DNA of 64,000 nt from NCBI GenBank assembly GCA_020057405.1, contig JAGVFW010000002.1:1621-65620 (forward strand), in the 5' to 3' direction. Each line of letters starts with the position of its first letter. Position 1 is the first letter of the stretch. Source of the DNA: an archaeon (GTDB taxonomy: Archaea; Micrarchaeota; Micrarchaeia; Norongarragalinales; UBA97). The notes beneath the pieces were generated by a model that worked only from the letters and a program-made list of their open reading frames with translations, was not told where the DNA came from and made no database searches. Below, piece after piece: positions 1,522-61,150 of this stretch. The translations under genes were made by a program, and so were the position numbers.

Positions 1522-2850
1522 ATGCGTTTTGACGGAAAACTCCTCCTCGCCCTGCTGCCTTTCCTGGCATTATGCGCCTACTCACTGACATTCAACGGCC
1601 ACGTGATGGACGAGTACACTTACATTCTCATGGCCCGCTCGTACGCGGCCAACGACTTTTTCAACGCTCCCGACCAAAGCAGGTTCCCGGCATTCCCATT
1701 TGCCTTGTCCCTAGTCTACCGAGTTTGGGACGGCGGGCTCCTCGCGGGCAGGCTCTTGGGTATTCTCTTTGGCCTGGCGGCGCTCGTGCTCGTCTATTCG
1801 ATGGGCAAGAAATTTTTCGGCGAGGAAGCGGGCTTTTGGGCAACCGCCCTGCTCGGCGCAAGTCCGGTCTTCGCGTTCTTTTCAGACAAAGTGCTTAGCG
1901 AGCCCATGTTTATCGCCTTGCTCGTCGCCTGCGCGTGGCTTGTCGTGAAGGCAGGTGAGGACCGCAAGTGGTTAATCGCCATTGGCGCAAGCGTTTCACT
2001 TTTGGTGCTAACGCGCTTTTTCGGCCTCTACCTCGCCCCAATCGCCCTCCTCTACTGGTGGCGGCGCGGGCAACTTCAAATCCTAGCCTCAACGGAATTT
2101 GCCATCGGCATTCTTGCCTTCCTCGCCGTCTCTGCACCGTGGCTGGCGTTTAGCACGGCAATCACGGGTAATCCGATTGGCCTTCTGCGCGAGTTCTTCT
2201 CAAGCAACGTGATTTTTGAGCAGGGCGGATTTGCCCTCGCCGACCGCATCCCGAGTTACTTGCTGCTAGCACCATTCATTGCCGGCGCAGCAATTGCCCT
2301 CATACTACTTTACCCCAAGCGCGTCTTTGCCGAAGTCTCAAGCGGCCCGGGCTTCATCGCACTGGCATCCGCAGTTGTCATTGCCGCGTCCCTTGAAGTC
2401 CACGGCTTTTTGCAGTTCCGCCTCCTGCGCTATCTCGTGCCGGCAGCACCCTTCGTCGCCTTGATTGCGGGCGCCGGGGCAGTTGCACTTGCGAAGAAAG
2501 GCAAGCCGCTTATCGGCAAGGCTGTCTCCTGGCGCTGGCTGCCGATTGCGCTTTTGGCCGCCAACTTCATTGCAGCCCTCATGGTGATGCACATATTTGG
2601 CGGCCTTGACAAGTACTCGGGTTACCACGAAGTCGGCGTCTTCGCCGCGGCAAACTGCCAAAGCCACTATTCTAACATCGAGCGCGTGCTCCAAGTGTAT
2701 TCCGGCAAGGCCCAAGTACCAATCGGGCAGGCCGACTGCGCGGTTGAAAGCAAGTTTAACCCGAACGTCGTTGGCGCAAACTTTTCCGCCGGCAGGGAAC
2801 TAATTTACAGCAACAAGGGAATGAGCGTCTGGAGGCTCAAGCATGCCTAG
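1522..2850 (+). CDS. polytopic GT-C glycosyltransferase, PMT/ArnT-like (GT39/GT83-type), probably Dol-P-sugar dependent
   Basis: 442 aa with more than 10 predicted TM segments. A conserved DE motif follows TM1 ('GHVMDEYTYILMARSY'), as in ArnT 'DETRYAEIARE' and Pmt 'DEVHF'. Its 3' end overlaps the downstream GT2 gene by 8 nt. Confidence 0.55.
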   Translation: MRFDGKLLLALLPFLALCAYSLTFNGHVMDEYTYILMARSYAANDFFNAPDQSRFPAFPFALSLVYRVWDGGLLAGRLLGILFGLAALVLVYSMGKKFFGEEAGFWATALLGASPVFAFFSDKVLSEPMFIALLVACAWLVVKAGEDRKWLIAIGASVSLLVLTRFFGLYLAPIALLYWWRRGQLQILASTEFAIGILAFLAVSAPWLAFSTAITGNPIGLLREFFSSNVIFEQGGFALADRIPSYLLLAPFIAGAAIALILLYPKRVFAEVSSGPGFIALASAVVIAASLEVHGFLQFRLLRYLVPAAPFVALIAGAGAVALAKKGKPLIGKAVSWRWLPIALLAANFIAALMVMHIFGGLDKYSGYHEVGVFAAANCQSHYSNIERVLQVYSGKAQVPIGQADCAVESKFNPNVVGANFSAGRELIYSNKGMSVWRLKHA

Positions 2851-3508
2851 GGAACTTACTGTCATCCTGCCTACCTTGAATGAGGAGGAGGGCGTTGAGA
2901 TTGTGATGAAGGCGCTAGCCAAGGCTGGGGCCACCCGCGTGCTGGTCCTTGACGGCGGGAGCACAGACAGGACTGTGGAGATTGCAAAGAAGCTTGGTGC
3001 GACAGTGATGGTGCAGGAGGGCCGCGGAAAGGGAATGGCTTTCCAGACTTTCCTCAAAAAATACCCCATCAAGGACGACGCGGCCTACGTAATGCTTGAC
3101 GCCGACGCAAGCTACGCCGGAAGCGAAATAATGAAAATCGCGGCGGCGCTAAAAGACGCCGACGTCGTCACCGGCTCGCGCCCTCCCCTCATCTTCGGCT
3201 TCCGAAGTTTCGTGCACTACATTGGCGGCTTCCTAATCTCCGTTTTTGCTTCAGTGCTCTTCCTGCGGTGGAATCCAGACATCACTAGCGGTTACTGGGG
3301 ATTCCGCGGTCTCGCGCTCAAAAAGCTCGACATCACTTCGCACGGCTTTGAACTCGAGGCCAACCTGTTTGCGCAGTCAGCCAAGAAGGGACTTAAAGCA
3401 GTTTGTGTTCCAATTACTTACGGCAAGCGCGTGGGCACGGCAAAACTGTCGTTTCTCGACGCGTTAAAAATCGTGCCGAAATTGCTAAGCGAAAGGTTGA
3501 GCGGGTAA
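2843..3508 (+). CDS. GT2 glycosyltransferase, dolichyl-phosphate hexose synthase-like (DPM1/AglD-type)
   Basis: 'LTVILPTLNEEEGV' and 'LVLDGGSTDRTVEIAKKLGA' form a GT2 DxD-type N-terminus. Translationally overlapped with the upstream GT-C gene. Confidence 0.75.
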   Translation: MPRELTVILPTLNEEEGVEIVMKALAKAGATRVLVLDGGSTDRTVEIAKKLGATVMVQEGRGKGMAFQTFLKKYPIKDDAAYVMLDADASYAGSEIMKIAAALKDADVVTGSRPPLIFGFRSFVHYIGGFLISVFASVLFLRWNPDITSGYWGFRGLALKKLDITSHGFELEANLFAQSAKKGLKAVCVPITYGKRVGTAKLSFLDALKIVPKLLSERLSG

Positions 3509-8847: not shown

Positions 8848-8866
8848 CTGTCATCCGCCACTCTTT

Positions 8867-9595
8867 CTACGGTTTCTTTTCAACAAATTTTAGCTGCAGA
8901 AGCCTCTTAAAGAATTTGAGCGCTTCCTTGCCAAGCCGCGTTTTAGTCGCGCCAGACTTGCGCTCGAGGAACTTTACCGGGATTTGCGCCACGCGCGCGC
9001 CCCTGGCCGCAGCCTCGACGACGACTTCAAGCATGAACGCGTTCCCCGTGCTCTTGCACTGCTCCGGGGCCCAGAACTTCTTCTTGAAGAGGCGGAAATT
9101 TAGCGAAAAGTCGTTTACCGGAATGCCGGTTATCGCGCGGGTGAATGCATTGCCCGCCTTGCTTACGGGGATGCGCACGAAGTTGTACCACTCTTCCTTC
9201 GCCTCGTAGTATCCTTCCTTGCAGTGGCGGCAGCCGACGACGAAGTCAAAGCCCTCGGCAATCTTCTCAAGTCCGTTCGTGATGTAGGCCGGCGCGACAG
9301 AGTTATCGGCGTCAGTCGAGACGATTACCTCGCCCCTTGCCGCAGTGTAGCCCAACGACAAGGCGTAGCCGATGCCGTTTCGTTTCAAGTTGTTGATGAG
9401 GTGGACTTCCGGCCACTTTGCGGACAGCTTCCTGACGACATCGCCCGTCTTGTCCGGGGAATTGTCGTCAACGACGATTATCTCAAAGGCCTGCTTTTCC
9501 CGCATCATCTCCTCGCGGATGGCAGTTATGGATGGTTCGATGTTGTCGTGCTCGTTATACGACGGGATGACGATTGAAACGTAGGGTTCTTTCAT
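8867..9595 (-). CDS. GT2 dolichyl-phosphate mannose/hexose synthase-like
   Basis: 'MKEPYVSIVIPSYNEHDNI' and 'IIVVDDNSPDKTGDVV' are DPM1-like. The start is taken at ATG 9595 (ATGA overlap with the upstream membrane-protein stop). The track ORF 9751 start would sit inside the upstream gene. Confidence 0.8.
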   Translation of the reverse strand: MKEPYVSIVIPSYNEHDNIEPSITAIREEMMREKQAFEIIVVDDNSPDKTGDVVRKLSAKWPEVHLINNLKRNGIGYALSLGYTAARGEVIVSTDADNSVAPAYITNGLEKIAEGFDFVVGCRHCKEGYYEAKEEWYNFVRIPVSKAGNAFTRAITGIPVNDFSLNFRLFKKKFWAPEQCKSTGNAFMLEVVVEAAARGARVAQIPVKFLERKSGATKTRLGKEALKFFKRLLQLKFVEKKP

Positions 9596-11391
9596 TTCTT
9601 GAGCACCACTAGCAACGCCAGCAAACCAATTAGCACGGAAAAGCTTATGAGTGCGAAAAACCCGCCCTTTGGCCCAACCGCCGCGTCGGGGACAAGCAGC
9701 CGCACCTTCATCTCGTGCGTTCCAGCTTCGACAAACTCGCAGCCGCGGCACTCAAGCGACGGGTAATAGCCCTCAAATATCGTGGCAATCGTTCCCGCCG
9801 TGCCATGAAGCGCAATTGAATTGCCGCTAACGTCATATGTTGCGCCCTGCACGAACGAGTAATTGCCTGGCTTTTCCCACACCACTGCCTCGTTGGTCAG
9901 CATTGCAGGAGAGGCGCCGTACGCGGCGTAGTTGCCGCCAACGCAGTCGACAATCCACCGCACCTGGTAGCTCGAGTCGGTCAAAAGCGGCTCGTCCTTG
10001 GCGGCAACGCCGCTGCTTTCAAACGCTCGGGCGGCCGGATCGAGGTTGGTGTAGAAGACCACGCCCTCGGCTGCAGGCTTGCCTGCCTGGATTGCCGAAT
10101 AGAAGTAAGGATAGGGGCACTTTGCGAAAAGCACTCGGCCAAAACCACTCTGGCCCGCAAGATATGCCGTCACCGCCTGCTTGGATGCCGCCTCGCCGGC
10201 GTAGTCAGTCGCCATGAGTGAAGCAAACGGCACGCTAATGACAATCAGCGCAATTGCAATCGCGTTATTTTTCGGCTCCCAGTTCCGCGCAAGCCAGCCG
10301 GCCGCGAAAAGCGCTGCGAACAAGACGTAAACAACGGGGTTGAGCGTTTGGAAGAACGGGATGAGGAAAGAGTTTGACAATCCCGCGGCAATGAGGACGC
10401 CGGTTGCAGCGAGTGCAAAGTCAACGCGGGGCTTGGCAGACTGGAAAATGCCTGCAAACTCCGCAACAAGCAAAAACGCCACGAACTCGCCAATCAGCAC
10501 GAACTGCTGGAGGTTCTGCCCCCAGTGCATGAGATAAAAAAGGCCTGCTGCGCCAACCGCGATTGCCAGCACTGCCGCCCGCCTGATGCCGGCGTTTGCG
10601 CGCAAAAAGTGGCGGAGCGCAAGCCACGCGATTGCGGTAGTGAAAAGCGGTCCGAGCCACGACAGGGCGACGACTGGCGTGTGCGGCTCGAACGAGAACG
10701 CGGGGCTGACGTACTTTCTAAATTCCAATAGCGACATTGCGAGGGGCGTGACGATGATTGCAAACACGAGCGCGCCCGCACCCGCGCCAAAGATTTCTGC
10801 CTTGCCCGCCTTTGACTTGCGCAAAAGCAGCCATGCAGCCGCGACGCCGGCAATGAGCGCAGTGTGCAGGCTCGCGAGGGCGGACAAGCCGAGCAGCGCG
10901 CCGGTTGCAACAGTCCCGCGCCAGTCGCCGAGGTTTTTCGCCCGCATTGCAGACTCGATGGCAAGCACTGCAAGCACGCCGCCTACTAGAGTCGGGAACC
11001 TGTCAACGCGAAGCCACGAGTAGAAGAACCCGTACGAGGCGATGAAGAGAAGGAGCATGAGCCCCTTGCGCTCGGCTTTGAGGCCCATCGCGTCAGCGAG
11101 TCGCCAGCAGGCGTAAGCGAGTCCGGCAACTGCGAGTGCGTCAACAAGCGCGTAAGCTGCAACCGGCCCGACGACTTGCCCGATGCCGTGCACTAGCCAA
11201 AAGCCTAGGATGTAGACGACGAGGATTGGCGAGCCGAGGTACCAGAGGCTAGTGTACTGGTCAAAGCCGTTTTGACTAGTAAGCATCACTGTTCCCAAGT
11301 GCGAGACGGTGTCAAGATTGTTTGGGAAGGATGAAAAGTAGATTGCCGCATAGGCCAAAAGCAGGACGGCAGCAGCGTGCAGGTAGCGCAT
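9592..11391 (-). CDS. large polytopic membrane protein with a C-terminal extracytoplasmic domain (about 220 aa) and a terminal TM anchor. Possibly a GT-C-like glycosyltransferase, polymerase or flippase-associated protein.
   Basis: About 13 hydrophobic segments within 450 aa, then a soluble domain and a final helix 'FFALISFSVLIGLLALLVVLKK'. The start is taken at 11391 (MRYLHAAAVLLL), directly after the upstream TAG. The longer track ORF to 11679 would overlap the upstream GT2 by 286 nt. Confidence 0.45.
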   Translation of the reverse strand: MRYLHAAAVLLLAYAAIYFSSFPNNLDTVSHLGTVMLTSQNGFDQYTSLWYLGSPILVVYILGFWLVHGIGQVVGPVAAYALVDALAVAGLAYACWRLADAMGLKAERKGLMLLLFIASYGFFYSWLRVDRFPTLVGGVLAVLAIESAMRAKNLGDWRGTVATGALLGLSALASLHTALIAGVAAAWLLLRKSKAGKAEIFGAGAGALVFAIIVTPLAMSLLEFRKYVSPAFSFEPHTPVVALSWLGPLFTTAIAWLALRHFLRANAGIRRAAVLAIAVGAAGLFYLMHWGQNLQQFVLIGEFVAFLLVAEFAGIFQSAKPRVDFALAATGVLIAAGLSNSFLIPFFQTLNPVVYVLFAALFAAGWLARNWEPKNNAIAIALIVISVPFASLMATDYAGEAASKQAVTAYLAGQSGFGRVLFAKCPYPYFYSAIQAGKPAAEGVVFYTNLDPAARAFESSGVAAKDEPLLTDSSYQVRWIVDCVGGNYAAYGASPAMLTNEAVVWEKPGNYSFVQGATYDVSGNSIALHGTAGTIATIFEGYYPSLECRGCEFVEAGTHEMKVRLLVPDAAVGPKGGFFALISFSVLIGLLALLVVLKK

Positions 11392-11393
11392 TG

Positions 11394-16307: not shown

Positions 16308-16318
16308 TTTTCTCTCCC

Positions 16319-19561: not shown

Positions 19562-19659
19562 CTACTGCATATCCGTAGCGGTGTGGAGTTTAAATTACTT
19601 TGGTAGGGTTTGCATCAACTAGCAGTTTATTGCGAACATTAGTGGGAGTTGAGTGGCTT

Positions 19660-24143: not shown

Positions 24144-24152
24144 TCTAAACAC

Positions 24153-24236: not shown

Positions 24237-24983
24237 ATGTACGGCAAGCACAAAGTCATCGTAGTCATGCCCGGCCACAACGTCGAGCGCACGCTCAAGC
24301 GCACTTACGACGAGGTCATGGCGCAAAAAATCGTCGACAAAGTAATTCTAGTCGATGACGGCAGCACGGATAGGACTGCAGCCATCGGCAAGACGCTCAA
24401 GTCCGTGCAAGTCATTTCACACCCGAAGAACCGCGGCTACGGTGCTGCCCAAAAGACGGGCTACAACGCGGCCCTGAAGGCTGGTGGCGACATTGTCATC
24501 ATGGTCCACCCCGACTACCAGTACACGCCTAAACTCATTCCGCCACTGACGGCACTTTTGGCGACAGGACTCTACGATTGCGCCCTTGGCTCGCGCATCA
24601 TCGGCGGCCACCCCCTAAGCGGCGGAATGCCGCCCTGGCGCTACGTCTCAAACCGCCTCCTAACATTTTTTGAAAACGTCATGATGGGTTCGAAACTCTC
24701 GGAATTCCATTCAGGCTACCGGGCCTTCACGCGCAAACTACTGCAAACGGTTCCCTACAATCGGTGCTCGGATGACTTTGTTTTTGACAACCAGATGCTT
24801 GCGCAAATTCTCTGGTCGGGCCTCAACATTGGGGAAGTCACTTGCCCGACTCTCTATTTCGAGGAAGCTTCCTCAATGAGCATCAAGAAAAGCGTAAAGT
24901 ACGGCGTGGGCTGCGTTGAGACCGCGCTTACCTACCGGCTTGCCAAGCTGGGCCTCGCCGGCTCGTCCCTCTACAGCCGCTAA
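24237..24983 (+). CDS. GT2 dolichyl-phosphate hexose synthase-like
   Basis: 'HKVIVVMPGHNVERTL...VILVDDGSTDRTAAIG' is DPM1/Alg5-like. The start is taken at ATG 24237; the track ORF begins at 24192. Immediately upstream of a GT-C membrane protein. Confidence 0.75.
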   Translation: MYGKHKVIVVMPGHNVERTLKRTYDEVMAQKIVDKVILVDDGSTDRTAAIGKTLKSVQVISHPKNRGYGAAQKTGYNAALKAGGDIVIMVHPDYQYTPKLIPPLTALLATGLYDCALGSRIIGGHPLSGGMPPWRYVSNRLLTFFENVMMGSKLSEFHSGYRAFTRKLLQTVPYNRCSDDFVFDNQMLAQILWSGLNIGEVTCPTLYFEEASSMSIKKSVKYGVGCVETALTYRLAKLGLAGSSLYSR

Positions 24984-25022: not shown

Positions 25023-26465
25023 ATGGACAAGAAGTTCGCCGCGTTCTTCGTCGCGGCAGTGCTCGTTTACGCTTCAGTTGCCATTTTCTACCCGCTAGTC
25101 GGCGACGAGCAGATTCACGGCTACTTCGCGCGCTGGACTGCCGAGCATATGCAGTTGCCCATCAGCCAGAAAGTAAACGGCCTGCTTTGGTACCACTACC
25201 CGCCCGCCTATGCAGTCGTGGCAGGCTTCTTCGTCAAGCTCTTCTCCGGCTTAATCGGCGCGATTCTTTCCGCCCGCATCTACGCCTTCATCGCATCGCT
25301 TGCAACATTCGTCCTCGTCTACAAGTTCGTCACCAAGCGGCTGCCGCAGGCTGATACGACTATTCTTCTTGCCTACCTAGTCGCCTCGCCGTTTCTCTCA
25401 AGCAACGCCGGCATTGCCACAATCACTCCGCTAGGCCTGCTAACTAGTTTTGCGACAATCTACTTGCTCTACGAGTTCTTCGACAAGCCGACGACTCGCA
25501 GCGCGCTTTTGCTTGCTGGCGCACTCGCCGCGGCACTCCTCACACACTACTACCTCCTGACGCTGCCTCTTGCAATCCTCGCCGCCGCCTATTTCAACCG
25601 CGAGCGCGTCAACTGGCGGTTCCTCATCGGCGCCCTCGCCCTCGGCTGCGCGGTAGGTGGTTCGTTCTACGCCTACAACCTCATCACCTACGGCCAGTTC
25701 GGCGGCCCTAGCTCGTCAACAATCGGCCAGCTCGTCTCGCCCTTTGACCCAGGCTGCGTCTACATCGACGGTTGGCTAAGCGGGCTTAACGGATTTGTGC
25801 ACTTTGACGACTCTTTTGCCCGCATTGACGGCCGCCTCAAGTTTCTGCCAATCTCGACAAAGTGGCTCTGGAGCGCCGGAATCGCCTTCCTCTACCTGCT
25901 CATCGCAGCCGGCGCGGTTGCAAGCGCAAAGAAAGACCGCGGCCTAATCGCAATTGCATTCATTTCCCTGCCCACCCTCGTTCTCGGCAACTGCTTCATC
26001 CGCTATTCGGGCGTCCTGCCGTTGCTCTTCGGTGTGTTCCTCACCATCGGCGTAAACGCAGTCGGCCCGAAGCTGGAAAAGCCAGTCAAGGTAGTCGTGC
26101 TCCTCCTCCTTGCAGTACTGCTAGTGCAGACGTTCCTCACCATGCAGGGCGTACGGGAAAGCAAGGTTCCAATTTACGATTTCATCAAGGCAGTGCCCGA
26201 CCGCGTTGACGCGAAAGACTTGTGTTTCTTCTCGCACCCTGGCGAGCCGATTTCAGTTCTTGCGACGCTGCTTACCAACCAGGAAATCCAGCCCTGCCAC
26301 GACGGCGGCTATACTACAAACGTCCTCGTGCTCAAGGACCTGCGCACCTTTGAACGCGACTACACGCCTGAAGACCTGGCAAAACTCAACAACGATTACG
26401 TGCTAGTCGATTCGCAAAAGGGCGGGGACAACGAAATCGCCCTCTACAAGCTCAAAACCGGCTAG
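25023..26465 (+). CDS. polytopic GT-C glycosyltransferase, PMT/ArnT-like
   Basis: 480 aa, about 12 TM segments. DE motif after TM1: 'FYPLVGDEQIHGYFARW'. Confidence 0.55.
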   Translation: MDKKFAAFFVAAVLVYASVAIFYPLVGDEQIHGYFARWTAEHMQLPISQKVNGLLWYHYPPAYAVVAGFFVKLFSGLIGAILSARIYAFIASLATFVLVYKFVTKRLPQADTTILLAYLVASPFLSSNAGIATITPLGLLTSFATIYLLYEFFDKPTTRSALLLAGALAAALLTHYYLLTLPLAILAAAYFNRERVNWRFLIGALALGCAVGGSFYAYNLITYGQFGGPSSSTIGQLVSPFDPGCVYIDGWLSGLNGFVHFDDSFARIDGRLKFLPISTKWLWSAGIAFLYLLIAAGAVASAKKDRGLIAIAFISLPTLVLGNCFIRYSGVLPLLFGVFLTIGVNAVGPKLEKPVKVVVLLLLAVLLVQTFLTMQGVRESKVPIYDFIKAVPDRVDAKDLCFFSHPGEPISVLATLLTNQEIQPCHDGGYTTNVLVLKDLRTFERDYTPEDLAKLNNDYVLVDSQKGGDNEIALYKLKTG

Positions 26466-26515: not shown

Positions 26516-27436
26516 ATGGCAAAGAAAGCGCCCCTCGTAGTCGCAGTCGTCCTCACCTGGAATGACTCCCAGGCTGCCCTAAAGTGCGTGCGGTCTGTGC
26601 TCGCAAGCGACTACGCCAACCTGCAGGTGGTGCTTTTAGACAACGCAAGCAACGACGGCACCCCCGCAGCTGCAGGAACGGCTTTCGGCGCAAACAAGCG
26701 CTTTTCGCTCATCGTGAATGACTCAAACCGCGGATACGTCGCCAACAACGTCGGCATCAAGGAAGGCCTCAAGCGCGGCGCCGACTTCGTCCTCATACTC
26801 AACAACGACACTGTAGTTGAGAAGAACGCCGTCTCGCGGATGGTTGCAACAGCCGTAGACTACCCAAACGCCGCGGCAATCGCCCCCTTACTTGTGCTTG
26901 GCAACGACCCGACGCGCGTCTGGAGCGCCGGCACTGGATTCAACAGCATCATCTTCAAGCCGGTCCTGTGGGGCCGCGGCAAGCCCGTCTCGTGTTTCAC
27001 CGAACCAAGGGAAGTGCCGCTCGCCGTTGGCGCAGCTCTACTCGTGCGCACCCAAGCCATCCGCAAAGTCGGCCTGCTTGACGAGAAGTACTTCATCTAC
27101 AATGAAGAGACGAAATGGGAGATTCTGATGAAGCGCGCTGGCTATACTTTTGTCCTTGAGCCTGCCGCACGCGTCGTCCACTCAGTTGGCGAGGCCTTCG
27201 GCGGCGGCGAGACGCCAGTTGCAACTTACTACCTCGTGCGAAACCGGGGTTACCTAATTGCCGACTTGTGCCCACTTTACCTAAAGCCCATCGCCTACGC
27301 CTCTCTTTTAGCTGAGACTGTGCTGCGGGCAGTCCGTGGCATCGTTTCCGGCAAGCACGGTCACGCAAGCGCGGCGCTAACGGGTTTGGGACACTTTCTT
27401 ACCGGCGTGACGGGCAGAAAGCCCGGAATGAAGTAA
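26516..27436 (+). CDS. GT2 glycosyltransferase
   Basis: 'LVVAVVLTWNDSQAALKCVRSVLASDYANLQVVLLDNASNDGT' GT2 domain. Confidence 0.85.
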   Translation: MAKKAPLVVAVVLTWNDSQAALKCVRSVLASDYANLQVVLLDNASNDGTPAAAGTAFGANKRFSLIVNDSNRGYVANNVGIKEGLKRGADFVLILNNDTVVEKNAVSRMVATAVDYPNAAAIAPLLVLGNDPTRVWSAGTGFNSIIFKPVLWGRGKPVSCFTEPREVPLAVGAALLVRTQAIRKVGLLDEKYFIYNEETKWEILMKRAGYTFVLEPAARVVHSVGEAFGGGETPVATYYLVRNRGYLIADLCPLYLKPIAYASLLAETVLRAVRGIVSGKHGHASAALTGLGHFLTGVTGRKPGMK

Positions 27437-27456: not shown

Positions 27457-29025
27457 TTATTTTCTCTTTAGTATCGTGTAATTGCCGAACTGCGTTACCG
27501 GCGCGAAGTCCTTGCCGATGTAGTTGTACAAGTCGCCCTCAAATTCCGTCACGTAGCACCTGTCGACCTTGCTCATCGGCGAGGTGATGGCAAACTGCGC
27601 GTTGCTTGTGCGAATGTCGTTGATTATCTCCGCCTGCACTGCCGGTGCGCTTGTGATGCCCGGGTAAAGCTGGATGTACGACGATGCCGGGTCGTGGCCG
27701 GTAACCAAATAGAACGAGGCGGCCCCGCTTGCGACGTAAATCTCCTCACCCGGCGCAGCATTTGCACTAATGTATTCGGTAGCCTGCTTGAAATCGTCAA
27801 TCTGGCCCTTTGGAATAGTCATGCCAGCGAACTTTTCAGTCGGCCCAAGGTAGTCGCGGTAAGTGAATGCGACAAGGCTTGCCCCGAGCAAGGCGAAAAA
27901 CGCAAGGTACGCAAACGCCGCGAGGGCAAGCGCCTTTTTGCCACCAGTCGCCTTGGCAAAGCCACCCGCGAGCTTGTAGAGCAGGTAAGCGGCAATGATG
28001 TATGCAAGAAGCATGCTGAAAATCAGGTGGTTGCGGTCTGTGCGGGGATAGACGACCATGTGGAACTGGAAGAGCGCGACTAAAGTTGCAAGCAGCAGCG
28101 TCTTGCCCTCGACTTTGGAGAGCAGCGTGCGGTTGCGGTAAAGGTAGTAGAGCGCAGCGAAGTAGACGAGCAGGACCGCATAGTAGACTGAGTTGATTGC
28201 CGAGCGGTAAACGGATTCAATCGCGAGGCTGGGCGGGATGAGTGAGGCGACTGTCGGGAACGGCAGGCCCCAGCACTGGTGGCTGCCCTGCGTTGCCGAG
28301 CGCACCACCATCATGTCGTACATTCCGGTAAACGAGTTTGTTGCTGTAAAATACCCGACCGTGAGGAGCGGAATGACTGCAGCGGCGGCGAAGAAGAGCT
28401 TGCGGTCCCACAACTGGCCGACAACCGCCTTGACTTTCGGCCAGTTCTTGGCAAGTGCAGTGATTGCAAAATAGACGGTAATTCCCGCAAGCGTGTATGC
28501 GCCGACGTTCTGCTTGAAAAACGCGCTCGCTCCAACAGCGAAGCCGGCCAAAAGCAAGTGGCGCAGCTTGCCTGACTCCTCATTTCGGATTATGAAGTAA
28601 ACCGCGAGGACTTGGAAGAATACTGCCGGCCAGGTGGGCGTCGTGTAGTGCTGGAAGGGAATGCCCCAGATGAGCAAAAGAACCGGGGGCAAAAGCGCGT
28701 AAGGATGCGGCACCAAACGCCGTGCAATGAGGTAGAGGAGCGCGCCTGCGGAGGCGGCAAAGAGCGCCATGATGATGCGGGCGAAAAGAATCTCGTTTGG
28801 CGCAAAGAGGACGTGGACAAGGGCGCCGATTAGAAAGACGCCGGGCGTATAGATGTTCCGCACTTGAGTGTAGAGCACTTCGCCCTGCGAAATCAGCTTT
28901 CCGCTAAGGAGCGCCTGGCCCTCGTCGGTGCCGTCAAACATCTTGTCGACGAAGAACGCTGAGAACGCCAGGGACGCGACTAGCACTAGGAGAGCGACGA
29001 CGACAGGTCTGGAGCCAAGGTCCAT
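27457..29025 (-). CDS. polytopic GT-C glycosyltransferase, PMT/ArnT-like
   Basis: 522 aa, multi-TM. DE motif in the first loop: 'FVDKMFDGTDEGQALLSGKL'. Confidence 0.55.
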   Translation of the reverse strand: MDLGSRPVVVALLVLVASLAFSAFFVDKMFDGTDEGQALLSGKLISQGEVLYTQVRNIYTPGVFLIGALVHVLFAPNEILFARIIMALFAASAGALLYLIARRLVPHPYALLPPVLLLIWGIPFQHYTTPTWPAVFFQVLAVYFIIRNEESGKLRHLLLAGFAVGASAFFKQNVGAYTLAGITVYFAITALAKNWPKVKAVVGQLWDRKLFFAAAAVIPLLTVGYFTATNSFTGMYDMMVVRSATQGSHQCWGLPFPTVASLIPPSLAIESVYRSAINSVYYAVLLVYFAALYYLYRNRTLLSKVEGKTLLLATLVALFQFHMVVYPRTDRNHLIFSMLLAYIIAAYLLYKLAGGFAKATGGKKALALAAFAYLAFFALLGASLVAFTYRDYLGPTEKFAGMTIPKGQIDDFKQATEYISANAAPGEEIYVASGAASFYLVTGHDPASSYIQLYPGITSAPAVQAEIINDIRTSNAQFAITSPMSKVDRCYVTEFEGDLYNYIGKDFAPVTQFGNYTILKRK

Positions 29026-29138
29026 GCTTCATTATGTGGTAGGCAGAACCGATTTAAAATCCCGCAGAGCGGCCCATCTCAAGAAGCTTATATTTGCGGC
29101 GCACCATAATACCTTTCAAACACGATTTTTGGTGTGTG

Positions 29139-39063: not shown

Positions 39064-39070
39064 CCTTAAC

Positions 39071-40414: not shown

Positions 40415-40419
40415 TTTCT

Positions 40420-41469: not shown

Positions 41470-41556
41470 TGGCCTATCCCCTCACAAATTCAAAAGTGCC
41501 CTACAAACAGGTTAGTCGAATACTGTATTTTAAAGGTGCAGGGAGTGAGAAACTTT

Positions 41557-42255
41557 ATGGTAACCCTTAGCATCGTCACGTCAGTCTACAACGAGGAGGA
41601 CATCGTAGAGAAGTTCCTCGGCCGACTGCTTGCAGTGCGCATTCCCGACGCGGGGGTAGAGTTCGTCGTTGTCGACAACGGCAGCACCGACGGCACGCAC
41701 GCCATCCTCGAGCGGCTGGCGAAAAAACACGGCTTCAACCTCATCACCAATCCCTCGCCCTCAAAGGGCTTGACGCACGGAGTGATTACCGGCATCCGCG
41801 CGGCAAAAGGCGATTACGTCTGCATCATTAGAAGCGACTTTCAGGAAGACCCTGACGACATCCCGCCAGTTTTCGCAAAAATGCGTGCCGAGGGCCTTGG
41901 CCACATCATCGGCTGGCGAAAAGACAGGCACGACCCGTTCCCGCGCCTTGTCACGGCATTTCTCTACGTCAACCTCGTGCGCCTGCTGCACGGTTTCAAG
42001 CTGCCCGACATCAACGGCGCGCCCCGCATTTTCAAGGCAGAGTATTTCAAGAACTACGAGTTTCAGTCCCGCGGCATCATCATCGACGTCGAGACGCTCT
42101 GGCGCGTTCGCAAGAAGGGTGGCAAGCTCGGCTTCGCAGTCGTAAGGCATTACCCGCGCACAACGGGCAACAGTTTTGTCAAGCCCGGCACGGTTCTCGA
42201 GATTTTCGCAGACTTGATGGACTTCACCCTCAAGGCTTGGTTTTCAAAAGACTAA
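41557..42255 (+). CDS. GT2 dolichyl-phosphate hexose synthase-like
   Basis: 'LSIVTSVYNEEDIVEKFL...EFVVVDNGSTDGTHAILERL'. ATG 41557 lies about 25 nt downstream of the 'gtattttaaagg' TATA element. Confidence 0.8.
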   Translation: MVTLSIVTSVYNEEDIVEKFLGRLLAVRIPDAGVEFVVVDNGSTDGTHAILERLAKKHGFNLITNPSPSKGLTHGVITGIRAAKGDYVCIIRSDFQEDPDDIPPVFAKMRAEGLGHIIGWRKDRHDPFPRLVTAFLYVNLVRLLHGFKLPDINGAPRIFKAEYFKNYEFQSRGIIIDVETLWRVRKKGGKLGFAVVRHYPRTTGNSFVKPGTVLEIFADLMDFTLKAWFSKD

Positions 42256-48260: not shown

Positions 48261-51200
48261 GTGGGTTTAGTGGTCGATACTTTAGTTCTTGCTATCTCGG
48301 TCATTCTCTTCGCAATTCCGGGCATTTTCCTCTCGGCAGCGCTATTTCGGCGAACGTCGCTTGACTGGCTTGAGAAGGGGTTACTTGGTGTAGTCTTAAG
48401 CTGCGTGGCAATGCCCGTGCTTGCCATCCTCGAGCTCGTCTTTTTCGCAATCAAGTTCAACGGCATGCTGCTTTTCGCCAACTTCCTTCTCCTGGTACTC
48501 GTCGCCATCGTCGCCTACGCTTACCAGGGAATGCCAAAGCTAGAGTTTCACCGCCCGCGCATACCATTCCTTGACGGAAAGTTTGAGTGGGAAAAGGACA
48601 AGAATCTAGTCTTCGGCGCGGTTCTGTTAATCCTGCTGCTCATTACCTTCTGGGTCAGGTTCGCACCCGCCTGGGCGGATAACTTTTTTGAGTTCGACCC
48701 TATTTTCTACAGCCACGTTACGGAAATACTGGCGAAGAACGGCGTCATCCCTGCCGAGTCAAGCGAAGTTTACTACCCGCTGACGAAAGACCTGCGTGTT
48801 TACCCTATTGTGCCCTACTTGGGGGCGCATATTTACGCGATTTACCACGCGATTGTCGGCGGCCCGTTCATCAAGTCAGACTTTCACTTAGTCATCGAGA
48901 TTTACCCGCCCCTTATGGCAATACTCACTTCATTTGCAGTCTACCTGCTCTTCCGCCGGCAGGCGAATGACTGGATTGGCCTGATAGCGGCTGGCACGCT
49001 GGCGACAATGCCGCAGCTAGTCAGCAAGTTCGGTGCAGGTGTCAACGAACTGCAGCCGTGGGGCCTCTTCAGCGCCGTTTTCGTCATCGCAGCCACCTTC
49101 CTTGCAATGTCGCAAAAGAGCTACCGCTTCGCAGTCTTGGCCGGCATCGGACTCTTCGGAGCCATGCTTGGCACGGCGCAGGGCCTCTGGCCTGCAGCAG
49201 CAATCGCCTCTTTCTTCCTGCTTCACGCGCTCGTTTCCTACCTTCGCGAGGAGTTAGATTTCCGTGCGGTCGCCATTTACGCCATCATCGCCCTTCCGGG
49301 AGTCCTCGGCGCGCTCTTGTTTAACTTCTACCGCTCGGGCCTGACGCTCGGAATTGGCAACCTGATGTCGAATGCAGGTGCGTTGTTCAAACTCGGCACA
49401 CTCCAGTACCTGCTTATCGCCGCAGTTGCAGTCGCCGTGTTCCTGCTTGCAGTTCAGCAGTTCGTCCTGCCCAGGCTAAGGCAGGTCACGCCTCACCCGA
49501 AGCCCGTCAGCGTTGCTGCAATGCTGATTGCGCTGGCAATAGTCTTCATCGCAGTCCCGGCTGTTCCCGGCATGCTCGGCGATTTTCTCAACAGTTCCGC
49601 CGGCTTTGCCCGACAGGGGAGTGCCCTGGGCATGACGATTGCAGAGGAAAACGCGACCACGCCCGGCCTGTACTTCGGCGCGTTTGGCAACATCAATCCC
49701 GATGTCCTCCTTCCTGCCGCCGCGCTTCTAATCTCCCTCTTCGCGTTCATCAAGCTCTTGATTGCCGGTAGACGGATTGCGGCTGGCGCTGTTGTATTGG
49801 GTGTGCTGCTTATCACGGCGTTCAACTCGTTTACCGACTCGATGCTTTTGTGGGTTGCCAACAACCTGTTGAGCGGCTATTCGCTTTTCACGCAGTTTGT
49901 CACCGGCAACGACTTGTTCGTCTACATGCTTGTTTCCATCATCTCGCTATTGCTTGCCATGCTCCTCGTCAGGGAAGACCCGATTCCGTCGGAGCTTCTC
50001 TACCTCGTCATCGCAATTTTCCCCGTCGCCTACATCGGCTTAAACAAGCTCAAGTTCATGCCGCACCTGGCACTTGCCCTGGCAATCGCGTTCCCGTTCG
50101 CCCTCTCTATGGGCCTCAAAATCATCCAGACGCTCTCGACCGAGCTTAAGGGCGAGAGTGGCCGCAAGATTGCTGTGAAGGCCGGCCTTGCCCTCATCGT
50201 CATCATCGGCGGTCTAGTGCTTTACGCGCAGTCAAACACGCTTGACAACTCAATGGCAGGCCTGCAGTACACCCGCATCTCGAGCGACTGGCTGTCAAGC
50301 TACGAGTGGATGCGCACGGCACCCTCGTTTGACAAGTCATTCTGCACCAACACTTACGGTTACGACTGCCGCGTGCTCTCATGGTGGGATTACGGCCACT
50401 GGACTACGTTCTTCGGCGAGCAAAAGAGCGTGCTTGACCCCGGCAACCGCTATCCTGACTTCAACCAAGGCACGGCAAGGGCTTTTGTCCAAGGCAACAT
50501 CACTGACCTGCTTTACACCGTTCGCTACCACCAGGCGACGCACATTCTTGCCGACGCGCAGCTAGTGCAGAAGTGGGGCGCACTCGTGTTCCTAAGCGGC
50601 ACGTGCGCGCACTCGCAGTACGCAACCTGTCCAGAGAAGCCCGAGATTGACTACAAGAACGGCGCCGGCAGAAGCACTTACGAGGCCGAGCACTACTTCG
50701 AGTTCCTCACGAGTTCCGGCACCTGCCCAGCGCAGTTGACCGGCGTGGCGTTACCCGCATTCAAGAGCAGCCTGACGAACGCCGTCTACTGCTTTACCGA
50801 CACGGAGTACCTGCTTTTGACTTCGCAGGGCATCGACCCGAACTTCAAGCGCAAGTACAAGATAATCGGCCGCGACACTGTCGACGCCGCGCGCCTAGAG
50901 AAGGACACGGCTTACCTCTTCGGCTACACGCAAGGCCAGTTCATCAACGTGAACCCCGACCTCACCTACGTCGGCCTGAACAACACGGTCATCGACTCGG
51001 CCTTCACGCGCCTCTTCTTCTTCGAGTACATGCCTGGAATGCAGCTTGACCACCGCTCGCCAAGCGGCGAAGTAAAGATATTCCGCATCCTACCGGAGTT
51101 CATCAGCGGCTCTACAATCGCAAGCAGCAGCAACTTAGCGTCGACGCCAAGCCCGACTCCGATACCCTCGGCAACTCCCGAGCCAACGCCGAGTGCAAAC

Positions 51201-51320
51201 GAGACTGGAACTAACCTGACCTCATCAAGCCCCACTCCTTCGGCTAGCTCGTCAGTAACGCCGAGCCCAACGCCGGCGCCTTCAACAAGCCCGACGCCCG
51301 TTCCCTCGCCCACGCCATAG
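48261..51320 (+). CDS. aglB: archaeal oligosaccharyltransferase AglB (STT3 homologue) with a C-terminal Pro/Thr/Ser-rich tail
   Basis: About 13 N-terminal TM segments. The diagnostic 'WWDYGHW' (in 'CRVLSWWDYGHWTTFFGE') sits in the C-terminal soluble domain. The final about 65 aa are 'PSPTPIPSATPEPTPS...SPTPVPSPTP'. Confidence 0.9.
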   Translation: MGLVVDTLVLAISVILFAIPGIFLSAALFRRTSLDWLEKGLLGVVLSCVAMPVLAILELVFFAIKFNGMLLFANFLLLVLVAIVAYAYQGMPKLEFHRPRIPFLDGKFEWEKDKNLVFGAVLLILLLITFWVRFAPAWADNFFEFDPIFYSHVTEILAKNGVIPAESSEVYYPLTKDLRVYPIVPYLGAHIYAIYHAIVGGPFIKSDFHLVIEIYPPLMAILTSFAVYLLFRRQANDWIGLIAAGTLATMPQLVSKFGAGVNELQPWGLFSAVFVIAATFLAMSQKSYRFAVLAGIGLFGAMLGTAQGLWPAAAIASFFLLHALVSYLREELDFRAVAIYAIIALPGVLGALLFNFYRSGLTLGIGNLMSNAGALFKLGTLQYLLIAAVAVAVFLLAVQQFVLPRLRQVTPHPKPVSVAAMLIALAIVFIAVPAVPGMLGDFLNSSAGFARQGSALGMTIAEENATTPGLYFGAFGNINPDVLLPAAALLISLFAFIKLLIAGRRIAAGAVVLGVLLITAFNSFTDSMLLWVANNLLSGYSLFTQFVTGNDLFVYMLVSIISLLLAMLLVREDPIPSELLYLVIAIFPVAYIGLNKLKFMPHLALALAIAFPFALSMGLKIIQTLSTELKGESGRKIAVKAGLALIVIIGGLVLYAQSNTLDNSMAGLQYTRISSDWLSSYEWMRTAPSFDKSFCTNTYGYDCRVLSWWDYGHWTTFFGEQKSVLDPGNRYPDFNQGTARAFVQGNITDLLYTVRYHQATHILADAQLVQKWGALVFLSGTCAHSQYATCPEKPEIDYKNGAGRSTYEAEHYFEFLTSSGTCPAQLTGVALPAFKSSLTNAVYCFTDTEYLLLTSQGIDPNFKRKYKIIGRDTVDAARLEKDTAYLFGYTQGQFINVNPDLTYVGLNNTVIDSAFTRLFFFEYMPGMQLDHRSPSGEVKIFRILPEFISGSTIASSSNLASTPSPTPIPSATPEPTPSANETGTNLTSSSPTPSASSSVTPSPTPAPSTSPTPVPSPTP

Positions 51321-51367: not shown

Positions 51368-51398
51368 AGTTGCCTTATAGTGTTTTCCCTAGGCAACT
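51368..51398. terminator. hairpin between the convergent aglB and aglH-like genes (candidate bidirectional terminator)
   Basis: Perfect 8-bp inverted repeat 'agttgcct'(51368-75) / 'aggcaact'(51391-98) with a 15-nt T-rich loop 'tatagtgttttccct'. The 3' half overlaps the GPT stop codon. Confidence 0.3.
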
Positions 51399-52435: not shown

Positions 52436-52487
52436 CGAAATGATTTGCGCGGGCAAATTATATAGATTGCTGCCCCAAGCCATATTC
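52436..52487. promoter_or_regulatory. bidirectional archaeal promoter with a central TATA box 'AAATTATATAGA' for aglH-like (-) and nucS (+); both transcripts predicted leaderless
   Basis: 52-nt gap. The TATA-like 'caaattatatagattg' is centred about 26-27 nt from each start codon (52435 and 52488). Confidence 0.5.
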
Positions 52488-61145: not shown

Positions 61146-61150
61146 GTTCG

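Follow-up and report, generated by a model that had tools for sequence, protein, structure and literature searches.

What might an archaeon do with a membrane glycosyltransferase whose gene overlaps that of a putative lipid-sugar synthase? The question is raised by two open reading frames, hereafter pair 1, in a 64,000-nucleotide stretch of DNA (the window) from a member of the Micrarchaeota, a DPANN archaeon, where they lie in a surface-glycosylation island:

1522..2850, + strand: GT-C1, a 442-aa ArnT/PMT_2-like glycosyltransferase of the GT-C_A type, matching PMT_2 and, in a profile search, ArnT
2831..2835, + strand: GGAGG, a Shine-Dalgarno-like element within the end of GT-C1, 8 nt 5' of the GT2-1 ATG
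2843..3508, + strand: GT2-1, a 221-aa GT-A enzyme like polyprenyl-phosphate monosaccharide synthases, with DAD at residues 86-88

How bacteria and eukaryotes glycosylate outside the cytoplasm from lipid-phosphate monosaccharides is well understood, while the documented archaeal cases are a few haloarchaeal enzymes (AglD/AglS, Agl22/Agl23). That pair 1 belongs to this already known type of system, in which a dolichyl-phosphate (Dol-P) monosaccharide is made inside the cell and used outside it, is well supported by the sequences: GT2-1 probably charges a lipid carrier with one sugar inside, and the ArnT-like GT-C1 probably passes the lipid-borne sugar on outside. A sequence-only reading of this DNA had proposed the same logic, and it is the best reading because the GT-C_A fold, the alignment of a DE motif with D55/E56 of ArnT, the synthase-like GT2 and the conserved pairing all argue for it.

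A compact ArnT-like glycosyltransferase

GT-C1 has roughly 10-11 transmembrane (TM) helices and a C-terminal extracytoplasmic alpha/beta domain of approximately 80 aa. Its polytopic core, the two juxtamembrane helices in its first extracytoplasmic loop and a fold like that of solved GT-C enzymes place it in GT-C_A, as do, by alignment, acidic residues at the start of the first of these helices (JM1): the catalytic-type pair D30-E31 stands straight after TM1, where helix 29-42 begins. In GT-C_A enzymes the conserved catalytic base is an aspartate at the JM1 apex (PMC12041525). Across 48 GT-C1 homologues D30, E31, Y34 and R303 are invariant, against an average column identity of about 28%, and by that measure the invariance of D30/E31 is far beyond chance; R54, R165 and Y304 are, like R303, conserved. 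A DE directly after TM1 had been reported for three GT-Cs of the window, and we find it in all three.

The closest relative of known structure is ArnT, which is both the sole sequence-level match of GT-C1 in the PDB and its top Foldseek match, at an identity of 14-15%. The profile match (E=1.8e-9) sets D30/E31 on D55/E56, R165 on K203 and Y304 on Y345, in what is a profile-sequence alignment rather than a superposition of coordinates; the 3-residue offset of the ArnT chain numbering was checked via D158 and K203. D55/E56 in 5ezm_A and D77/E78 in Pmt1 form the active site (PMC7801869), and D55, K85 and K203 are essential in ArnT (PMC7801869, PMC8698208). Likeness of fold does not tell enzymes that act on glycans (ALG12) from those that act on lipids (ArnT) or on protein (Pmt4, STT3). 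ALG12 and ArnT are closer to GT-C1 than any Pmt in structure and sequence, with Pmt structures matching at superfamily level only.

Family models draw the same outline. Pfam PMT_2 (PF13231) matches GT-C1 with 52.3 bits and two further GT-Cs of the window, GT-C2 and GT-C3, with 36.4 and 38.6 bits, all above the gathering score of 26.1. None of the three matches PF02366 (PMT), one of the models against which a check had been proposed, nor PF16192 (PMT_4TMC) or MIR at E<=0.01 in Pfam, and GT-C1 was not accepted as a Pmt (GT39) on that ground. Nor was it accepted as ArnT proper (GT83), given remote homology alone, no ArnA-/ArnD-type neighbours and NCBIfam ArnT/ArnA/ArnB equivalogs unpassed. None of the NCBIfam haloarchaeal Agl models is passed, and none matches the GT-Cs at membership level: the Agl23 model TIGR03663 gives GT-C1 17.3 bits over residues 74-160 only (the PMT_2 core), against a cut-off of 126.25, so that membership was rejected, and it finds no match in GT-C2 or GT-C3. 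A faint precomputed trace of PF03901 appears in two GT-C1 homologues only, and the JGI label for the GT-C1 protein is '4-amino-4-deoxy-L-arabinose transferase-like'.

A minimal synthase-like GT2, its coupling and its surroundings

Residues 4-202 of GT2-1 align with residues 24-231 of the P. furiosus Dol-P-mannose synthase (DPMS; 5mlz, E=1.3e-8), covering the whole catalytic domain and sharing the motifs DAD (86-88), GSR, SG[FY] and P-x-T-x-G-x-R. The GT-A/DXD character and full-length similarity place GT2-1 among polyprenyl/dolichyl-phosphate monosaccharide synthases, which agrees with its earlier description as Dol-P-hexose-synthase-like. Its best NCBIfam matches, like those of GT2-2 (below), are the AglJ, Dol-P-hexose transferase and PpgS models, with AglJ (TIGR04182) at 128 bits over positions 2-211 of 293 and DPhHxTase_Halo at 69 bits, and it falls below every equivalog cut-off (128 vs 325 for AglJ, 69 vs 375 for DPhHxTase, and 30 vs 370). 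There is a single hydrophobic stretch, at residues 122-142, and the 221-residue chain has no TM segment at its C-terminal end, whereas AglJ, GtrB, ArnC, PfDPMS and type-III DPMS have such helices. GT2-1 is therefore like the TM-less catalytic-subunit type, mycobacterial Ppm1 and human DPM1 being presumable parallels among catalytic-only synthases; with all cut-offs missed and no C-terminal TM, it was not accepted as an equivalog of a characterised, membrane-anchored synthase.

The junction reads ...CTC AAG C[ATG CC TAG], with the GT2-1 ATG at 2843 and the GT-C1 TAG at 2848-2850, which bears out the 8-nt overlap and the coordinates first given for pair 1. By this overlap GT2-1 is, as read from the DNA, translationally coupled to GT-C1. 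The GT2 orthologue lies directly 3' of the GT-C1 orthologue in 8 of 12 informative related loci, at GT-C identities as low as about 27-30%, and the two genes overlap by 4 nt in two related loci; the remaining four of the 12 have a GT-C1 orthologue with no adjoining GT2. Judged from these loci, the pairing is kept in evolution, and the overlap and kept order suggest stoichiometric co-production of the two proteins. Every relative that carries a name is Candidatus Micrarchaeota.

Downstream of GT2-1, co-oriented with pair 1 and tightly packed, come three genes that likely supply nucleotide sugar, and further along the window lie two central genes of N-glycosylation:

3511-4827, + strand: UDP-glucose 6-dehydrogenase, AglM-like (AglM model 487 bits; NDP-sugar dehydrogenase TIGR03026 457 bits, passed)
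4827-5696, + strand: GalU (TIGR01099 341.6 bits, passing 326.8)
5698-6633, + strand: SDR sugar epimerase/dehydratase (GalE-like, 161 bits)
48261..51320, + strand: AglB oligosaccharyltransferase, WWDYG motif (STT3 PF02516 38.5 bits; archaeo_STT3 92 bits)
51389..52570, - strand: polyprenyl-phosphate HexNAc-1-P transferase-like protein of the AglH/MraY type, GT4 family PF00953 (Glycos_transf_4 105 bits)

By its family the GT4 protein likely starts the N-glycan. In one related locus, too, AglB lies close to the pair. Surface proteins beside pair 1 carry 14-39 N-X-S/T sequons each. A DegT-type aminotransferase of the window belongs to another operon and is nearest to RfbH and PseC.

A proposed lipid-sugar relay and its possible acceptor

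We propose that GT-C1 and GT2-1 form a two-step lipid-sugar relay for extracellular glycosylation, a reading that we consider quite probable whatever the acceptor. By homology, GT2-1 would sit peripherally on the cytoplasmic face, take a single sugar off its nucleotide donor and load it onto dolichyl phosphate. GalU, UDP-glucose dehydrogenase and the epimerase share one gene string with pair 1, which makes UDP-glucose or a UDP-glucuronate-derived sugar the probable donor. The Dol-P-sugar would then be flipped over the membrane, where R165, Y304, R54 and R303 of GT-C1 would hold its phosphate, D30, at the tip of JM1, could serve as base or acceptor-positioning residue, and the sugar would be transferred with inversion to an extracytoplasmic acceptor. 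Perhaps GT-C1 also anchors the TM-less GT2-1 at the membrane. Sugar, carrier and acceptor alike are predictions from sequence and setting. The acceptor is the weakest step: it is most likely a glycan, either the protein N-glycan (as for AglD/AglS) or a flipped lipid-linked oligosaccharide (as for ALG3/9/12), because the island is centred on AglB, the neighbours are AglM/AglF-like and the surface proteins are rich in sequons. This context favours the finishing of an N-glycan or lipid-linked glycan, and we put the relay with a glycan acceptor at somewhat better than even.

No GtrA-, Wzx- or AglR-type flippase is encoded in the window, whose multi-TM products are the GT-Cs, the orphan membrane protein MEM4 (below), AglB, the GT4 protein and three small proteins without a Pfam family; none of these adjoins pair 1. 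A three-component organisation was set aside for pair 1, as no GtrA/GtcA (PF04138) or Wzx/AglR-type translocase is encoded alongside.

Could the acceptor instead be protein? In this alternative GT-C1, GT-C2 or GT-C3 would be an O-glycosyltransferase passing Dol-P-hexose to Ser/Thr in the disordered, Pro/Thr-rich linkers that secreted and membrane proteins carry, on the models of actinobacterial Ppm1/Pmt and streptococcal GtrB/PgtC2. The TM-less GT2-1, like Ppm1 and DPM1, would suit it, and the linkers that the earlier reading described are indeed present: four proteins of the window have long Pro/Thr/Ser-rich ones, including AglB with its 69-aa C-terminal tail (residues 951-1019). In bacteria, GT2 and GT-C pairs do modify disordered regions rich in Ser/Thr (PMC12041528), some PMT_2-type enzymes, the TMTCs among them, are protein O-mannosyltransferases (PMC7801869), and an archaeal O-glycosyltransferase remains as elusive in the open literature searched as had been stated (PMC8241124, PMC11607397). 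However, the PMT (GT39) and MIR families go unmatched, ALG12 and ArnT outrank any Pmt, the streptococcal enzyme comes from another GT-C family (YfhO), and the AglM/AglF-like genes, AglB island and sequon-rich proteins suit N-glycan work at least equally. O-glycosylation of the four linkers is thus possible, although as an account of these enzymes we think it unlikely. Its boldest form, drawn by analogy with the Ppm1/Pmt and GtrB/PgtC2 parallels, would make a Micrarchaeota PMT_2 GT-C the long-sought archaeal protein O-glycosyltransferase, with GT-C1 and its TM-less Dol-P-hexose synthase the most tractable case, Ser/Thr of the linkers (AglB tail included) hexosylated, and GT-C1 anchoring its own synthase; this we regard as more unlikely still. 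If the acceptor were Ser/Thr in these linkers, the archaeal O-glycosyltransferase gap would be filled.

Two other alternatives are less persuasive. GT2-1 could be an AglJ-type initiator placing on Dol-P the first sugar of the AglB-transferred glycan, with GT-C1 independent or an Agl23-like factor for translocating Dol-P-hexose or lipid-linked glycan. AglJ is the top NCBIfam match and begins the Dol-P-linked pentasaccharide of Haloferax volcanii (PMC3871713), Agl23 has in vitro flipping activity towards lipid-linked glycans (PMC11182771), GT-C1 has its weak core match to TIGR03663, and the window yielded no dedicated flippase. Yet the shortfalls in score (128 vs 325 and 17 vs 126 bits) speak for membership in neither family, the invariant DE on ArnT D55/E56 argues for a transferase, tight and kept GT-C/GT2 coupling is typical of a donor synthase with its transferase, and an AglJ-type start is unneeded because the AglH-like initiator adjoins AglB; we hold this very improbable. 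We think equally little of GT-C1 as a functional ArnT analogue that would add a Dol-P-linked and possibly uronic-acid-derived sugar not to a glycoprotein but to a membrane lipid, lipoglycan or exopolysaccharide. The Arn pathway is fed by Ugd and a UDP-glucose dehydrogenase lies 3' of pair 1, the PDB, Foldseek and JGI assignments all name ArnT, and, as reported for Haloarcula AepG, a DPM-like GT2 can work in exopolysaccharide synthesis (PMC9943897). Against this stand an island built around AglB, the lack of ArnA/ArnD-type genes beside pair 1 (the DegT-type aminotransferase being that of another operon) and of Wzx/Wzy/ABC polymerase or export genes in the window. Archaea, moreover, have no lipid A.

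Measured against known systems, the proposed relay has several partial likenesses. ArnC/ArnT (an undecaprenyl-phosphate-L-Ara4N synthase and a GT83 GT-C; 5EZM/5F15) shares the combination of GT2 lipid-phosphate-sugar synthase and GT-C_A transferase, the aligned DE, K203 (here R165) and Y345 (here Y304), and a UDP-glucose dehydrogenase in the gene string. In contrast, GT-C1 is shorter (442 aa vs about 550) with a far smaller extracytoplasmic domain, GT2-1 lacks the C-terminal TM helices of ArnC, the gene order is GT-C then GT2, and no ArnA, ArnB, ArnD set lies alongside; as the host is an archaeon, dolichol is the presumed carrier and no lipid A acceptor is expected. The archaeal AglD/AglR/AglS system of Haloferax volcanii (Dol-P-mannose synthase, flippase-associated protein, Dol-P-Man:N-glycan mannosyltransferase) makes a Dol-P-monosaccharide inside and adds the last N-glycan sugar outside (PMC3871713), the logic proposed here, and likewise belongs to, or is close to, an agl cluster that includes AglF/AglM-type genes; however, aglD is apart from aglS (PMC3871713) whereas the genes of pair 1 overlap, and no AglR-type flippase was found with them. 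In the bacterial GtrA/GtrB/GtrC, CsbB/GtcA/YfhO, PgfS/PgfM and GtrB/PgtC2 systems a cytoplasmic GT2 also makes a polyprenyl-P-monosaccharide, from often adjacent genes, and the GT-C decorates glycans or Ser/Thr-rich protein regions outside (PMC11127046, PMC12041528, PMC8035078). Unlike these, pair 1 is archaeal with no GtrA/GtcA-like small flippase gene found, GT-C1 is of the PMT_2/ArnT type rather than GtrC/YfhO, and GT2-1 has no counterpart to the two TM helices at the C-terminal end of GtrB. Actinobacterial Ppm1/Pmt and eukaryotic Dpm1/PMT (GT39) share a Dol-P- or polyprenyl-P-mannose synthase that can be catalytic-only, a DE-motif GT-C and targets of the Pro/Thr/Ser-rich kind found in the window, but differ in having PF02366, PMT_4TMC and, in eukaryotic members, MIR domains, none of which GT-C1 matches. 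The eukaryotic lumenal mannosyltransferases ALG3/ALG9/ALG12 are compact GT-Cs of similar size without a large soluble domain and use a Dol-P-monosaccharide, yet identity is 10% with no sequence-level match to GT-C1, and they act on Dol-PP-oligosaccharide in the ER.

What pair 1 adds is threefold: a small, Micrarchaeota-restricted subfamily of compact ArnT-like GT-Cs for which there is a high-confidence model; a catalytic motif that is conserved; and a donor synthase that is likewise conserved, unusually minimal and translationally coupled. It is therefore a clean pair with which to ask which additions DPANN archaea make once AglB has acted. As it stands the result is mostly confirmation that a tiny-genome symbiont spends heavily on surface glycan diversification, with three PMT_2 GT-Cs, four DPM-like GT2s and AglB.

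Further GT-C and GT2 genes of the window

The sequence-only reading had counted three or four such pairs. Its coordinates and factual statements all check out, and the remaining candidates are:

24237..24983, + strand: GT2-2, DPM/AglJ/PpgS-like (Pfam GT2 88.8 bits, AglJ 53, PpgS 52)
25023..26465, + strand: GT-C2, 480-aa PMT_2 GT-C, D28-E29 after TM1 (PMT_2 36.4 bits)
26516..27436, + strand: GT2-3, soluble rhamnosyltransferase-type GT2 (best match TIGR01556)
27457..29025, - strand: GT-C3, 522-aa PMT_2 GT-C, D33-E34 after TM1 (PMT_2 38.6 bits)
8867..9595, - strand: GT2-4, ArnC/AglJ/DPM-like (Pfam GT2 100.5 bits, ArnC 62, DPhHxTase 52, AglJ 52)
9592..11391, - strand: MEM4, orphan polytopic membrane protein of 599 aa that carries a beta-rich ectodomain at its C-terminal end, plus a TM anchor
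41536..42255, + strand: GT2-5, small DPM-like GT2 (Pfam GT2 85 bits)

Strictly, and by family assignment, a PMT_2 GT-C is joined to a DPM-like GT2 in two pairs only, pairs 1 and 2. Pair 2 is adjacent here, with GT2-2 ending 39 nt upstream of GT-C2, although this is not conserved: the two GT-C2 orthologues have housekeeping genes around them and no adjoining GT2. The third pair falls away, because GT2-3 is both convergent and rhamnosyltransferase-type, hence a neighbour of GT-C3 rather than its partner; it was rejected as a Dol-P-sugar synthase on its best match, and has paralogues at 23169-24152 and 33526-34527 (BLASTP E=1e-15 to 2e-24). No BLASTP-level similarity links GT-C1, GT-C2 and GT-C3. 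In hhalign comparisons with the GT-C1 family, GT-C3 reaches a probability of 90% with its DE on D30/E31; GT-C2 reaches 94.8% over the core only, its DE (invariant in its 3 known sequences) at the equivalent position but beyond the local alignment.

Of the possible fourth pair, the coupling stands (GT2-4, downstream, overlaps MEM4 by 4 nt, ATGA, and is translationally coupled) but MEM4 shows no detectable similarity to GT-Cs: it has no PMT_2 match, indeed no Pfam or NCBIfam match even at E<=10, and an hhalign probability of 1% against the GT-C1 family. MEM4 has one homologue in 5.8 billion proteins and an AF2 model with pLDDT 39, and its synteny is kept in two related loci. The paralogous pairs had been called unusual, which overstates the case because GT2/GT-C pairs are a familiar arrangement (ArnC/ArnT, GtrB/GtrC, PgfS/PgfM, AglD/AglS). 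The list of DPM-like GT2s had also missed GT2-5, which has full-length BLASTP similarity to GT2-4 (4e-11) and GT2-2 (3e-9).

The coupled genes and the glycosyltransferase fold

A reading of the sequence by eye had seen here a GT-C glycosyltransferase with an Asp-Glu (DE) motif, coupled to a GT2 resembling dolichyl-phosphate-sugar synthases, and in this core it was right. The two ORFs of pair 1, GT-C1 and its partner GT2, lie where it had placed them (1522-3508) and share the 8 nt it had described: the GT2 starts with an ATG at 2843, within the final codons of GT-C1, whose TAG stands at 2848-2850, and a GGAGG precedes that ATG by 8 nt, both as read from the sequence. The gene string then runs on unbroken, with 2 nt between the GT2 stop and the start of a UDP-glucose 6-dehydrogenase at 3511.

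Pair 1 and the genes downstream
1522..2850, +, GT-C1 ORF, 442 aa
2843..3508, +, partner GT2 ORF, 221 aa
3511-4827, +, UDP-glucose 6-dehydrogenase (NCBIfam AglM model, 487 bits)
4827-5696, +, GalU (NCBIfam, 341.6 bits, exceeding the cut-off of 326.8)
5698-6633, +, SDR epimerase (NCBIfam, GalE-like, 161 bits)

A second UDP-glucose/NDP-sugar 6-dehydrogenase paralogue is found elsewhere in the island (39071-40444, -), with the same GxGYVG N-terminus as the 3511-4827 (+) product.

Two Pfam families had been named as checks on the three GT-C candidates of the window, with differing outcomes. All three exceed the PMT_2 gathering score of 26.1 bits (52.3 for GT-C1, 36.4 for GT-C2 and 38.6 for GT-C3), and none of the three matches the true Pmt family, PF02366. 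They share no BLASTP-level similarity and are thus not close paralogues but relatives at the profile level only, the GT-C2 family aligning with the GT-C1 family at an hhalign probability of 94.8%, and GT-C3 at 90%. GT-C1 itself is a member of a small, sharply bounded subfamily: four close sequences are found among 5.8 billion proteins, and 34 cluster representatives among 1.84 billion match at E<1e-30, against 18,540 general PMT_2-type matches at E<1e-3. Among species-representative genomes, queried with a 10-sequence GT-C1 alignment, six of the seven relatives come from Candidatus Micrarchaeota MAGs and the seventh from an unclassified archaeon, which makes a DPANN archaeon of this phylum the very probable source of the window; an exact-sequence database look-up of GT-C1 returned no record.

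Single-sequence phmmer searches of the PDB with GT-C1, GT-C2 and GT-C3 gave nothing meaningful, and it was only a four-sequence GT-C1 family profile that reached a single solved protein, the ArnT from Cupriavidus metallidurans (5EZM/5F15; E=1.8e-9, residues 28-357). In this profile alignment the DE of GT-C1 (D30/E31) stands opposite chain residues 58/59 which, given a numbering offset of three residues (D161 = D158, K206 = K203), correspond to ArnT D55/E56. R165, invariant in the 10 closest sequences, faces ArnT K203; Y304, present in at least 90% of 48 sequences, faces Y345; and the conserved R54-F55-P56 faces E84-K85-P86. Across the 48-sequence alignment, whose mean column identity is ~28%, the sole invariant positions are D30, E31, Y34 and R303. 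D55/E56 of 5ezm_A and D77/E78 of Pmt1 have been described as a common active-site motif (PMC7801869); ArnT is on record as requiring D55, K85 and K203, and the DE motif has been called a hallmark of GT-C enzymes (PMC8698208). In ALG6, ArnT, PglB and PimE, JM1 carries the catalytic aspartate at its apex (PMC12041525). An AlphaFold2 model of GT-C1 built on the 48 sequences (pLDDT 94.2, pTM 0.93) places the DE at the start of the helix after TM1 and adds a small C-terminal alpha/beta domain, and Foldseek ranks ArnT first for it (E 6e-9, TM 0.69), followed by STT3/PglB/AglB, ALG12, Pmt4 and AftB. GT-C1 therefore groups with glycosyltransferases, not with non-glycosyltransferase membrane families, and its DE falls on catalytic residues in an alignment that is profile-based, not a coordinate superposition; on both points by which it could have fallen, the earlier reading stands for GT-C1.

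Partner GT2 and conservation of the pair

The best NCBIfam models for the 221-aa GT2 are AglJ (128 bits) and a haloarchaeal Dol-P-hexose transferase (69 bits), both far under their equivalog cut-offs, and its best PDB match is the Dol-P-Man synthase of Pyrococcus furiosus (E=1.3e-8), which covers the whole catalytic domain and aligns its DAD, GSR, SG[FY] and PxTxGxR motifs. The protein stops at the end of this domain and carries no C-terminal membrane helices; its orthologues in related loci are of like length (219-224 aa). Since the catalytic domain is matched in full and the helices are missing, we predict a polyprenyl-phosphate sugar synthase of the catalytic-only type.

Gene order provides strong evidence that the two genes form a functional couple: in 8 of 12 informative loci (L001, L002, L003, L009, L010, L017, L018 and L022), at GT-C identities down to ~27-30%, the GT-C1 orthologue is directly followed by an orthologue of this GT2. 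The loci beyond these 12 stop within or just past the GT-C gene. The genes overlap by 4 nt in L009 and L010, and a methyltransferase sits between them in L002; in four loci with sufficient flanking DNA (L005-L008), the GT2 is absent beside the GT-C1 orthologue. In L001 the pair belongs to a glycosylation cluster with an AglB gene at its end. In this 32%-identity relative, the pair is also followed by a 693-aa membrane protein (9943-12024, -) with a weak match to PF10131, the PTPS_related membrane proteins (25.9 bits, cut-off 26.4).

Pair 1 is a new, lineage-restricted example of a well-known type of system, alongside ArnC/ArnT, GtrB/GtrC, PgfS/PgfM and AglD/AglS.

A proposed lipid-sugar relay and its possible acceptors

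The best-supported reading of pair 1 is a classical lipid-sugar relay, in which the GT2 would load one sugar onto dolichyl phosphate at the cytoplasmic face, the lipid-sugar would be flipped across the membrane, and GT-C1 would pass the sugar on outside the cell, D30 serving either in catalysis or in positioning the acceptor. A search of the window for flippase genes of the GtrA, Wzx or AglR type found none. With GalU, a UDP-glucose dehydrogenase and an epimerase encoded next in the string, the sugar may be glucose or derive from glucuronate.

To whom would GT-C1 pass it? ALG12, which acts on a glycan, ArnT, which acts on a lipid, and Pmt4 and AglB, which act on proteins, score nearly alike against GT-C1, so the acceptor is not readable from fold or sequence. 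Gene context leans towards the finishing of an N-glycan or lipid-linked oligosaccharide, because the window forms an island around AglB that holds an AglH-like GT4 together with many cytoplasmic glycosyltransferases and sugar-nucleotide enzymes, and encodes sequon-rich surface proteins. Three secreted or surface proteins follow one another at 13560-21114 (-): a LamG-domain protein of 960 aa, an S8 subtilase of 1080 aa and a PT-linker protein of 484 aa, with 35, 39 and 14 N-X-S/T sequons, respectively. A parallel is the agl cluster of Haloferax, in which AglF, AglM and AglS are grouped (PMC3871713).

Protein O-glycosylation, with the GT-C acting on Pro/Thr/Ser-rich linkers, would be a legitimate if less probable rival. 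Four window proteins carry long linkers of this kind, one of them formed by the last 69 residues of AglB, and bacterial GT2 and GT-C pairs glycosylate such regions (PMC12041528); the archaeal O-glycosyltransferase is still called elusive in the literature searched (PMC8241124; PMC11607397). The idea itself is not new, as archaeal PMT-domain proteins have already been proposed as candidates (PMC4973528). An Agl23-like, flippase-associated role is unlikely for GT-C1, whose match to Agl23 (PMC11182771) reaches 17 bits where the cut-off is 126, and whose invariant catalytic motif speaks against it.

Other candidate pairs and the wider island

The sequence-only reading had counted three or four pairs. 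Two hold on a strict count, pairs 1 and 2, and of these pair 1 alone is conserved in evolution. In pair 2, a DPM/PpgS-like GT2 (24237-24983) ends 39 nt 5' of the PMT_2 protein GT-C2 (start at 25023), a junction that had been quoted correctly. Both known GT-C2 orthologues (51-53% identity) have housekeeping genes as neighbours and no GT2 among them, so this adjacency is specific to the present genome. All three known GT-C2 sequences keep the DE, at an equivalent spacing to the PMT_2 core; the hhalign alignment with the GT-C1 family spans that core only and leaves the DE outside, and a three-sequence GT-C2 profile found no match in the PDB.

The third candidate fell away. hhalign aligns the DE of GT-C3 with D30/E31 of GT-C1; the neighbouring GT2 is of rhamnosyltransferase type, has two paralogues elsewhere in the window, is transcribed convergently and does not qualify as a candidate donor synthase. 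A metagenome scan returned no GT-C3 relatives.

For the possible fourth pair, the tight coupling stood. MEM4, a 599-aa membrane protein that may or may not be a divergent GT-C, overlaps an ArnC/DPM-like GT2 by an ATGA, and the coupling is kept in the one homologue (73% identity) that turned up in 5.8 billion proteins. No similarity of MEM4 to a known family or structure could be detected: there was no match in Pfam or NCBIfam even at E<=10, none in the PDB, and an hhalign probability of 1% against the GT-C1 family; an AF2 model from two sequences (pLDDT 39) was unusable. It is a polytopic orphan whose C-terminal part forms a beta-rich ectodomain closed by a terminal TM anchor. One more DPM-like GT2 (41536-42255) had been missed; with it, DPM-like GT2s number four, and facing them are three PMT_2 GT-Cs and MEM4.

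MEM4 belongs to a second tightly packed operon (6656-13489, minus strand), whose gene order is kept in L012/L013.

The second operon
12389-13489, -, GT4
11394-12392, -, GT2 with C-terminal TM helices
9592-11391, -, MEM4, orphan 599-aa membrane protein
8867-9595, -, ArnC/DPM-like GT2, ATGA overlap with MEM4
7870-8847, -, GDP-fucose-synthase-like SDR
6656-7903, -, DegT/RfbH-like aminotransferase

One possibility is that this operon runs the same relay with a deoxy- or amino-sugar and a novel transferase. The presence of Ugd, an SDR, a DegT aminotransferase and an ArnC-like GT2 inside 10 kb also prompted us to consider an Arn-like aminopentose pathway; we rejected membership because the aminotransferase is nearest RfbH and PseC and the SDRs nearest GalE and GDP-fucose synthase, because these genes share the operon of MEM4 on the opposite strand, and because nothing equivalent to ArnA or ArnD was seen.

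Several further features of the window deserve mention. The surface genes at 13560-21114 have a GC content of 0.45-0.52 against ~0.57, with strong GC/AT skew, and GC falls as low as 0.41 at 18-20 kb. The AglB tail (residues 951-1019, window 51111-51320) comprises 69 Pro/Thr/Ser-rich residues, and similar PT-rich linkers are encoded at 19660-21114, 45516-45965 and 56092-56583, one product being cupredoxin-like. Two paralogous ~430-aa proteins (29094-30383, +; 37843-39123, -) combine an N-terminal Cys-rich, zinc-ribbon-like region with a methyltransferase-like core; both look like the Methyltransf_13/14 protein that adjoins the pair in L001, and they probably methylate sugars at C or O. Also within the glycosylation island, ORF 34557-35690 (-) has a low-complexity C-terminal tail and a CxxxCxxC typical of radical-SAM enzymes, seen by motif alone, and adjoins a protein of 170 aa that has 3-4 TM helices and matches no Pfam family (35750-36262, -). 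Finally, 60393-62500 (-) encodes two secreted or anchored proteins, of which the 60393-61145 product bears Cys-rich repeats (CGxC/CxxC-like) after a Pro/Ala-rich linker.
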